Source of the DNA: a virus
Lineage: Duplodnaviria; Heunggongvirae; Uroviricota; Caudoviricetes
IMG/VR virus record: IMGVR_UViG_2690316121_000008
Span: 1-31,188 of that record
Reading direction: 5' to 3' (one strand)
Length of the DNA: 31,188 bases
This document shows positions 13,187-13,556 of this stretch, piece after piece (within the stretch, counting starts at the first letter, position 1; every line of letters starts with the position of its first letter). The notes under the pieces are model-generated. The model worked only from the letters and a program-made list of their open reading frames with translations, did not search any database and was not told the origin of the DNA. The translations under genes and the position numbers were made by a program.

Positions 13187-13214
13187 TTGAAAACGTCAGG
13201 ATTATTCTTATTAT
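13187..13214 (+). promoter_or_regulatory. Putative sigma70 promoter for the tRNA cluster (-35 TTGAAA, 16-nt spacer, -10 TATTAT)
   Basis: Hexamers read directly; AT-rich upstream region; predicted start ~25 nt before the first tRNA. Confidence 0.35.
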
Positions 13215-13246
13215 GGCGCAGCACCAGCGCAATGATGCGTTGGGCA

Positions 13247-13322
13247 GGCCCTTTAGCTCAGTGGTGAGAGCGAGCGACTCATAATCGCCAGGTCGCTGGT
13301 TCAAGTCCAGCAAGGGCCACCA
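13247..13322 (+). tRNA. tRNA-Ile2 (anticodon CAU, lysidine type; formally Met/Ile CAT)
   Basis: 76 nt, acceptor GGCCCTT/AAGGGCC, anticodon loop CTCATAA, T-loop GGTTCAAGTCC, encoded CCA; close resemblance to E. coli ileX-type tRNA as recalled. Confidence 0.85.
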
Positions 13323-13323
13323 G

Positions 13324-13400
13324 CCGTCACTAGCTCATCGGGACAGAGCATCAACCTTCTAAGTTGATTGTGCGGGGTTCAAGTCCCCGGTGGCGGTCCA
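13324..13400 (+). tRNA. tRNA-Arg (anticodon UCU)
   Basis: 77 nt cloverleaf folded by hand: acceptor CCGTCAC/GTGGCGG (one G-U), D-stem GCTC/GAGC, anticodon loop CTTCTAA, T-arm CGGGG-TTCAAGT-CCCCG, encoded CCA. Confidence 0.8.
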
Positions 13401-13402
13401 GT

Positions 13403-13478
13403 GCCGACTTAGCTCAGTAGGTAGAGCAACTGACTTGTAATCAGTAGGTCACCAGTTCGATTCCGGTAGTCGGCACCA
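13403..13478 (+). tRNA. tRNA-Thr (anticodon UGU)
   Basis: 76 nt; acceptor GCCGACT/AGTCGGC, anticodon stem ACTGA/TCAGT with loop CTTGTAA, T-loop GTTCGATTC, encoded CCA. Confidence 0.8.
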
Positions 13479-13481
13479 TAT

Positions 13482-13556
13482 GCGGGCATCGTATAATGGC
13501 TATTACCTCAGCCTTCCAAGCTGATGATGCGGGTTCGATTCCCGCTGCCCGCTCCA
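13482..13556 (+). tRNA. tRNA-Gly (anticodon UCC)
   Basis: 75 nt; sequence matches, as far as I recall, E. coli glyT-type tRNA-Gly(UCC); anticodon loop CTTCCAA; encoded CCA. Confidence 0.9.

Follow-up and report, generated by a model that had tools for sequence, protein, structure and literature searches.

A four-gene tRNA array between the antiterminator Q and lysis genes of a lambdoid Escherichia coli prophage as a candidate rare-codon tRNA supply unit

A lambda-like (lambdoid) E. coli prophage carries exactly four tRNA genes, all on the plus strand at 13247–13556, in the interval between the antiterminator gene Q and the lysis genes. They are the only tRNA genes that ARAGORN finds in the window, by which we mean the whole 31,188-nucleotide stretch of DNA that was analysed. 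We propose that this array is an accessory tRNA-supplementing unit, a "moron" or stable-RNA operon inserted in the Q-to-lysis interval, and we give this reading a probability of about 0.62. The feature is real but ordinary for its phage group. In lambdoid phages, tRNA genes after Q have been familiar since the 1990s, and the array is already called by annotation pipelines in hundreds of genomes; a literature search found no published description specific to the four-gene array.

The prophage has an integrase gene at 1–1224, and the segment 8486–31188 is 99.6% identical to a prophage adjoining yjjG in E. coli JNE23-011. The Q gene (12512–12883, plus strand, 123 aa) was assigned by Pfam PF06530 (Phage_antitermQ, E 3.7e-51), and its product has 100% identity with a protein annotated by PGAP as "antiterminator Q family protein". 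As the activator of late transcription, Q would carry read-through on into the tRNA genes. On its downstream side the interval is bounded by a P21-type holin gene (14308–14523, plus strand; Pfam PF04971, P21 holin S, E 6.7e-34), named essD by PGAP, which is the first gene of the lysis cassette and is followed by endolysin, Rz, terminase, head and tail genes. The tRNA cluster thus lies between Q with its tR'-like terminator and the lysis genes, on the strand of the late transcript. The same placement had been given by an earlier reading made from the sequence alone (hereafter the sequence-only reading), and the Pfam assignments of Q and the P21 holin uphold it.

All four genes match Rfam RF00005 with 53.7–73.8 bits (gathering score 29; E 5e-9 to 1e-14). 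They form complete cloverleaves with encoded CCA ends and are separated from one another by spacers of 1–3 nt. The cluster with CAU, UCU, UGU and UCC anticodons described by the sequence-only reading is confirmed by ARAGORN and Rfam: the tRNA prediction that it proposed as a check returned the anticodons it had given, the amino acids are correct, and each of the four is a genuine, intact gene. When 12800–14400 was scanned permissively with Rfam, the only matches beyond the four tRNAs were their antisense echoes and a sub-threshold match to GadY.

The first gene (13247–13322, plus strand, anticodon CAU) was found by both ARAGORN and Rfam. It is labeled Met by ARAGORN, and PGAP labels an identical sequence tRNA-Ile. 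It is identical to K-12 ileY at 71 of 76 positions and much less like metT and metU; its acceptor stem reads GGCCCTT, as in ileX and ileY, in place of the GGCTACG of metT and metU. The pairs C4–G69 and C5–G68, which are determinants for TilS, can be read from the sequence. The 27–43 pair is A·C where the host has G·U, and A·C is kept in most of at least 110 related copies. The gene is closest to ileZ of Stx phage 2851 (75 of 76 positions identical), and these features assign it to the tRNA-Ile2 type, as the counterpart of the Stx-phage ileZ. It would read AUA after lysidine modification by the host TilS.

The second gene (13324–13400, plus strand, anticodon UCU; ARAGORN and Rfam) encodes a tRNA-Arg on the phage argN scaffold. 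Its match to the host argU is limited to 49 of 77 positions. The scaffold is shared with argN of phage 2851, including the C1–G72 first pair, A20 and the same arms; the gene has U73, and its anticodon is UCU where the phage 2851 argN has UCG. It carries both A20 and C35, which are identity elements for ArgRS. This tRNA is expected to read AGA and, weakly, AGG.

The third gene (13403–13478, plus strand) encodes tRNA-Thr with anticodon UGU (ACA), and the fourth (13482–13556, plus strand) encodes tRNA-Gly with anticodon UCC (GGA/GGG). The claim that the Gly gene is identical to a host gene proved correct, with 75 of 75 positions matching K-12 glyT. The Thr gene, overlooked in this respect by the sequence-only reading, is identical to K-12 thrU at all 76 positions. 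Because Thr is also identical, the host-like part of the array is the Thr–Gly pair and not Gly alone.

In E. coli and Salmonella, the two host genes belong to the operon thrU-tyrU-glyT-thrT-tufB, and the window has the thrU and glyT sequences in the same order. In contrast to the host operon, about 200 bp made up of tyrU and its spacers are absent, as are thrT and tufB, the remaining flanks are unrelated, and the genes sit in the late region of a prophage. The Thr–Gly spacer consists of three nucleotides, TAT, which correspond to the host base after thrU and the two bases before glyT. No remnants of tyrU or thrT were found in the window, and the match to the host flanks is limited to these 1 + 2 adjoining bases. 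The arrangement fits capture from the host operon followed by deletion of tyrU, for which three bases are weak evidence. For the array as a whole, the best explanation appears to be a chimera, in which the Ile2–Arg pair would be homologous to the Stx-phage ileZ-argN and the Thr–Gly pair derived from the host thrU-tyrU-glyT.

The sequence-only reading had further suggested that Gly was captured recently. This is not supported, since many phages and 604 of 5426 complete E. coli genomes carry the same Thr-TAT-Gly fusion. We rejected a recent capture of Gly on the grounds that the identical fusion is widespread on differing Q and lysis backbones; as it lies next to different Q and lysis modules, the capture must predate the prophage in the window. 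What keeps Thr and Gly identical to the host genes would be either purifying selection or gene conversion.

Of the known systems, the one nearest to the array is the ileZ-argN-argO cluster of the Stx phages (933W, Sakai, phage 2851). A literature search for ileZ, argN and argO gave nothing relevant, so the comparison rests on the phage 2851 sequence and on a citation in PMC3636060. The Stx cluster likewise follows Q and a terminator and precedes stx or the lysis genes. It shares with the window the first gene (75 of 76 positions identical to ileZ) and the scaffold of the second (argN), and it has the same TATTAT promoter element in most arrays among the matches listed. The window differs in that slot 2 carries UCU (AGA) instead of UCG (CGA), the argO scaffold (UCU on a scaffold of its own) is absent, and a host-type Thr(UGU)–Gly(UCC) pair is present instead. 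The leader is also longer, with 32 nt rather than 9 nt from the −10 hexamer to the first tRNA. We therefore regard the array as a variant architecture and not as a Stx-type trio. The accepted role of the Stx cluster is rare-codon tRNA supply (Schmidt et al. 1997, as cited in PMC3636060).

A second group of relatives comprises P21, SfI, Sf6 and ST64T, which carry Asn(GUU) and/or Thr(UGU) tRNA genes after Q, in the same slot and with the same Thr(UGU) specificity. These phages carry one or two tRNA genes, and their Asn is absent from the window. The tRNAs downstream of Q in SfI, Sf6, ST64T and P21 have received the same rare-codon interpretation, and a codon bias for ACA was noted in SfI (PMC3636060).

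At least 80% of the four-gene array was detected in 604 of 5426 complete E. coli genomes (about 11%), and the exact version found in the window in 8 of the 5426. The contexts include at least four different Q or antiterminator types and several lysis cassettes. The array also occurs in isolated phages such as PhiR47_1, behind stx in phi467, and in the LT-II prophage SerU-LTIIb. Three main architectures were recovered from IMG/VR: Ile2-Lys(UUU)-Thr-Gly in at least 48 complete arrays, Ile2-Arg(UCU)-Thr-Gly, the type of the window, in at least 25, and the Stx type, Ile2-Arg(UCG)-Arg(UCU), in at least 24. Among the matches listed, the Thr-TAT-Gly fusion is common to nearly all arrays, and host-identical copies make up 45 of 81 for Thr and 65 of 81 for Gly (IMG/VR).

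The tRNA genes are conserved beyond their surroundings. When the array of the window is compared with three other versions, identity is 95.1–98.4% in the tRNAs and 49–88% in the 120-nt flanks. A pattern search of IMG/VR for the slot-2 scaffold returned at least 119 loci with at least 27 distinct full-length sequences, in which 95.5% of stem cells are paired and six pairs have changed on both sides. In controls with the 3' partner slid by 1–3 columns, 28–56% were paired, with 0–2 two-sided changes. The Gly scaffold in relatives likewise shows the compensatory changes C6–G67 to U6–A67 and G5–C68 to U5–A68. The four genes are thus under purifying selection as tRNAs. Decayed copies are occasionally seen, for example a truncated Gly-scaffold copy at locus L124.

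Several transcription signals surround the array. Downstream of Q, a hairpin followed by U7 at 12960–12990 (plus strand; RNA fold −13.4 kcal/mol, z −2.65) resembles a tR'-like intrinsic terminator. A GC hairpin with a T-run is conserved at the equivalent place in prophages with other Q types, and because of these counterparts we read the hairpin as tR'. The corresponding pR' promoter between Q and this first terminator was not located by a consensus scan, and inspection by eye gave no convincing candidate.

The best promoter match of the region is a sigma-70-like site at 13187–13214 (plus strand), with TTGAAA, a 16-nt spacer and TATTAT (10 of 12 consensus matches). The TATTAT of this putative array promoter is followed by the GC-rich stretch GGCGCAGC. 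The consensus scan as a whole returned 4 sites, with 4.0 expected by chance; since this total is no better than chance, the promoter is supported by its conservation. The diverged leaders of loci L008 and L009 retain both hexamers. Among the matches listed, TATTAT is found upstream of 105 of 109 related arrays, as is a TTGNNN −35 hexamer, and the other flanks have diverged. In the related arrays, TTGCAA, TTTGCA or ATTGCA lies 17–18 nt before TATTAT, and a GC-rich stretch comes after it. The distance from the end of TATTAT to the first tRNA is 9 nt in 98 arrays among the matches listed and 32 nt in the type of the window. The sequence-only reading had considered an own promoter plausible, and the conservation of the hexamers across related arrays agrees with it; the position at which it began the cluster, 13187, is the exact start of the TTGAAA-16-TATTAT site. 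We infer that 13187–13214 functions as the promoter of the array.

Beyond the Gly gene, at 13579–13669 (plus strand; RNA fold −39.9 kcal/mol, z −4.86), lies a branched hairpin that is closed by a 13-bp stem and followed by U7. None of 200 shuffled sequences folds as well, and the hairpin has no Rfam match. Compared with L008, identity over the 120 nt that follow the Gly gene is 88%. This hairpin is probably the terminator of the tRNA transcription unit. A second hairpin, followed by U9, is located upstream of the holin gene at 14151–14180 (plus strand; z −4.45). A promoter-like site before the tRNA cargo and a hairpin with U7 after it would correspond to the arrangement of a moron, here composed of predicted signals. 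The array is likely an autonomous promoter–tRNA–terminator unit that may also be crossed by the Q-modified polymerase. The spacer between the Gly gene and the holin gene (13557–14307, 751 bp) was found by BLAST in only 3 of 5426 E. coli genomes, and in phages only its last 34 bases were matched. It contains no ORF longer than 46 aa wholly inside, except for an in-frame upstream extension of the holin.

Codon usage was compared between 40 genes of the window (8,912 codons) and 102 annotated core genes of JNE23-011 (27,477 codons). JNE23-011 is a related host strain, and the coordinates of the window genes were carried over from the PGAP annotation by tblastn. The sequence-only reading had expected AUA, AGA, ACA and GGA to be enriched in prophage relative to host genes and had named the lack of such enrichment as evidence against itself; the enrichment is present, at 1.6- to 4.3-fold. 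Ranked by prophage/host ratio among 61 codons, AGG is first (8.7), AGA second (4.3), AUA third (2.4), ACA sixth (1.9) and GGA tenth (1.6). Fisher p values for the four cognate codons (AGA, AUA, ACA, GGA) range from 1.6e-12 to 2.8e-4, and four random codons would reach a rank sum of 21 or less with p 2.3e-4. Summed, the four codons amount to 38.9 per 1000 in the prophage and 19.1 per 1000 in the host, a difference of about twofold.

Within the prophage, the four codons reach 45.6 per 1000 in early genes and 34.4 in late genes. Their density is highest in Q (122 per 1000, with 15 of 123 codons being AUA, AGA, ACA or GGA), DNAbr (99), cI (98) and orf345 (90), with Int at 44; it is lowest in yfdQ (7), the major capsid gene (16) and the portal gene (24), compared with 19 in the host. 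The product of orf345 has no match in Pfam, PADLOC or PHROG, and its 28 homologues are all hypothetical proteins. It is thus the regulators and accessory genes, rather than the bulk structural genes, that account for most of the codon demand. Two parts of the sequence-only reading have to be qualified accordingly. It had described the A-ending codons as rare in the host, and ACA and GGA are only moderately so (6.5 and 7.6 per 1000). It had also seen the set as tuned to AT-rich acquired genes and late genes; the enrichment peaks in early, regulatory and accessory genes, and the late genes with the highest expression (major capsid, portal) show little or none of it.

The tRNA content and codon usage of related prophages were also compared. 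ACA and GGA are as frequent in Stx-type prophages without the Thr and Gly genes as in prophages that carry them (p 0.66 and 0.30, respectively). AGA remains at 7.7 per 1000, five times the host rate, in prophages that have Lys(UUU) in slot 2. The difference in AGA usage between prophages with UCU and UUU in slot 2 (9.6 versus 7.7 per 1000, p 0.046) is small and comes from non-independent samples, and it was therefore not relied upon. Since codon use does not track tRNA content in these relatives, the bias is a general lambdoid trait and does not serve as evidence of co-adaptation.

Based on these observations, we propose the following mechanism for tRNA supply. E. coli K-12 has two genes for Ile2, one for Arg(UCU) and one for Gly(UCC). 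Its Thr(UGU) is encoded by the single gene thrU (PMC12445682). The array would supply further copies of Ile2 (k2C-AU), Arg(UCU), Thr(UGU) and Gly(UCC), all of them minor isoacceptors of the host. In the lysogen and in early infection, transcription would start from the array's own sigma-70 promoter at 13187–13214 and end at 13579–13669. After induction, the Q-antiterminated late transcript would cross the terminator at 12960–12990, then the array and then the lysis genes; this route rests on gene order and on the terminator, because pR' was not located. RNase P and host 3' processing would release the tRNAs, and in the first tRNA, C34 would be turned into lysidine by the TilS of the host. The additional tRNA may ease slow decoding of AUA, AGA/AGG, ACA and GGA. 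The beneficiaries would be the regulators Q, cI and Int together with AT-rich accessory genes, where the cognate codons are concentrated. Some observations stand against this proposal: codon use is independent of tRNA content in relatives, the proteins made in the largest amounts (major capsid, portal) hardly use these codons, and the rarity of ACA and GGA in the host is only moderate.

An alternative explanation is that the array replaces host tRNAs destroyed by anti-phage nucleases during infection or induction, following the models of the T5 tRNA-Lys against PARIS and the phage 21 tRNA-Thr(UGU) against P2 Old. P2 Old kills lambda-infected cells mainly by cutting the host tRNA-ThrU, at paired CNG motifs within the anticodon stem; the tRNA-Thr(UGU) of lambdoid phage 21 protects against it through a differing anticodon arm (PMC12445682). 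The substrates of PARIS AriB are Lys(UUU), Thr(UGU) and Asn(GUU), which it cuts at U36AAUC|A41 (PMC12409363). P2 Old thus acts mainly on Thr(UGU), which is also among the major targets of AriB (PMC12445682, PMC12409363), and anticodons targeted by AriB recur downstream of Q in lambdoid phages. The second tRNA of the array is far from the host argU and has neither a paired CNG motif nor a UAAUCA site. The shifts in tRNA content among relatives, which have no matching shift in codon usage, are also in line with this explanation.

However, the Thr and Gly of the window are identical to the host thrU and glyT. Because it equals thrU, the Thr keeps the cleavage motifs of both nucleases, with CUG/CAG at 28–30 and 40–42 and UAAUCA at 36–41. 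The paired CNG motif is also present in Gly, and both motifs are missing from Arg and Ile2. Little or no protection was reported for the tRNA-Thr species of the host, ThrU among them, and resistance requires changes in the anticodon arm (PMC12445682). With its altered anticodon stem, the tRNA-Thr of phage 21 withstands P2 Old (PMC12445682); the copy in the window, in contrast, is host-identical. The nuclease-resistant tRNAs of virulent phages (T5 Lys, Thr and Asn against PARIS; T5 tRNA-Tyr against retron PtuAB) have the Thr(UGU) specificity in common with the window, but the T5 tRNAs carry differences from the host tRNA in or close to the cleavage site, and the Thr and Gly described here carry none. 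In addition, PMC12445682 and PMC12409363 name no nuclease that targets Arg(UCU), Ile2 or Gly(UCC), and the slot that holds Lys(UUU) in the common variant holds Arg(UCU) in the window. Intrinsic nuclease resistance of Thr and Gly was therefore rejected, as they are host-identical and carry no cleavage-site substitutions. Counter-defence acting through Thr and Gly appears unlikely, and the replacement of destroyed host tRNAs by the array in general is, in our estimation, doubtful.

A related possibility is suggested by anticodon switching within the array family; this evidence concerns relatives of the window's array and not the array of the window itself. The slot-2 scaffold carries UCU in the window, UCG in Stx phages and UUU as the commonest form among the matches listed, and the Arg identity base A20 is kept in all its variants among the matches listed. 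In the common UUU form, C33 is present and the T stem contains an A·C mismatch. A further UUU form, with U33 on a window-like acceptor stem, implies an independent switch, so that UUU arose at least twice. On the thrU scaffold, rare copies carry UCU (in SerU-LTIIb) or UUU (in locus L121). The UUU variants do not have the AriB site, because positions 36–41 read UAAGUU; given this absence, and as Lys codons are not rare, the switch to UUU looks more like counter-defence than codon supply. The array could be one state of a reprogrammable tRNA cassette, exchanged among lambdoid prophages and retargeted by point mutation of the anticodon. We hold this to be a speculative and somewhat more doubtful reading. 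If selection for the switches came from tRNA-cleaving Toprim nucleases (PARIS AriB, P2 Old) rather than from codon demand, the cassette would be a temperate-phage counter-defence module, and the Arg(UCU) and host-identical Thr and Gly of the window would represent a susceptible or ancestral state.

It may also be considered that expression from the array's own promoter in the lysogen mainly aids AT-rich acquired genes of the host, located on islands, other prophages and plasmids, more than it aids the phage. The conserved dedicated promoter, which stands outside the logic of the late operon and has a GC-rich region after its −10 hexamer, is compatible with such a lysogenic conversion. So are the frequency of the array (604 of 5426 genomes) and its position beside toxin genes, stx in phi467 and those of the LT-II prophage SerU-LTIIb. 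However, cI and the accessory genes of the phage itself would profit as well, so that this explanation overlaps with rare-codon supply and is not exclusive of it; as the main role of the array we find it improbable.

Finally, the array could be a neutral passenger, left over from illegitimate recombination with the host thrU operon and other phages and tolerated by the Q-to-lysis interval, which is a hot spot for inserted cargo and here also holds about 750 bp of non-coding DNA almost unique to the lineage of the window, and the occasional decayed copies such as the truncated Gly scaffold would agree with this; but the tRNA genes are far more conserved than their flanks, stem substitutions are compensatory, the promoter is conserved and the array persists in hundreds of genomes on different phage backbones, so that the conservation data already disfavour this explanation and make it very improbable.

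Rare-codon supply thus remains our preferred reading of the array. The array provides a quantified case in which the tRNA content of a phage matches the codons most over-represented relative to its host, with the caveat that codon usage in relatives is independent of tRNA content. It also documents what appears to be a chimeric origin, with a phage ileZ-argN pair joined to a host thrU-glyT pair. The anticodon changes in the array family are open to direct testing against tRNA-targeting defence nucleases.

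The commonest version of the array among the IMG/VR matches listed carries, in its second tRNA gene, the same scaffold as the tRNA-Arg(UCU) of the window but with the anticodon UUU instead. This UUU gene is found at L007:2082-2158, L011:2078-2154 and L015:2078-2153, three related loci, and also in IMG/VR loci. The anticodon loop of this form reads CCUUUAA, so that position 33 is C, and its T stem contains one A.C mismatch. U is near-universal at position 33 of tRNAs. Positions 36-41 read UAAGUU, and the tRNA thus lacks UAAUCA, the site in tRNA of the defence nuclease PARIS AriB (PMC12409363). 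In the host, codons for Lys are not among the rare ones. Judged from its sequence, we propose the UUU form as a candidate nuclease-resistant tRNA-Lys.

The same anticodons are encountered on other backgrounds. Phage SerU-LTIIb (L013:1122-1197) carries a host-derived thrU scaffold with the anticodon UCU (Arg), and a further related locus, L121, has a host-derived thrU scaffold with UUU (Lys; nucleotides 241-316 of the extracted segment). Additionally, one distinct variant of the second gene (v11) combines the UUU anticodon with U33 and a window-like acceptor stem. Therefore, switches to UCU and UUU have occurred more than once and on different scaffolds. The first tRNA of the array, Ile2 (13247-13322), differs from its host counterparts at the pair 27-43, which is A27.C43 in the phage genes and G27.U43 in host ileX and ileY. 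A27.C43 is kept in most of the 110 related Ile2 copies among the matches listed.

The last tRNA gene is separated from the holin gene by a spacer of about 750 bp (13557-14307), in which no convincing ORF was found. Of 5426 complete E. coli genomes, just 3 contain this spacer, and its similarity to phage records is confined to the last 34 bases. At its start lies a Y-shaped hairpin followed by U7 (13579-13669, z -4.9), and near its end a second hairpin followed by U9 (14151-14180). In the related locus L008, the first 120 nt 3' of the Gly gene are 88% identical to the window.

An orphan ORF of 345 aa, orf345 (1319-2356, minus strand), adjoins the integrase gene. Its third codon positions are very AT-rich (GC3 0.33), and it is the top user of AUA (13) and ACA (12) in the window. 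No match was obtained in Pfam, PADLOC or PHROG, and each of its 28 homologues, which come from Enterobacterales, is annotated as hypothetical. The related E. coli strain JNE23-011 has a prophage that is otherwise almost the same, but there an ATP-binding protein and a hypothetical protein take the place of orf345, so that cargo at this position is variable.

Two adjoining Rfam matches occupy 7948-8136 (plus strand), isrK with 59 bits and C4 antisense RNA with 83 bits. Both fall within an ORF of 278 aa (7588-8424) whose Pfam Phage_ASH match (aa 117-209) spans the same bases. Either this ORF is a real regulator gene overlapped by RNA genes, or the Phage_ASH family partly represents a translated RNA locus.

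The Q gene (12512-12883), immediately upstream of the tRNA array, is the densest of all window genes in the four cognate codons AUA, AGA, ACA and GGA (15 of 123 codons, six of them AUA). The timing of late-gene activation could be influenced by how much tRNA the array provides.
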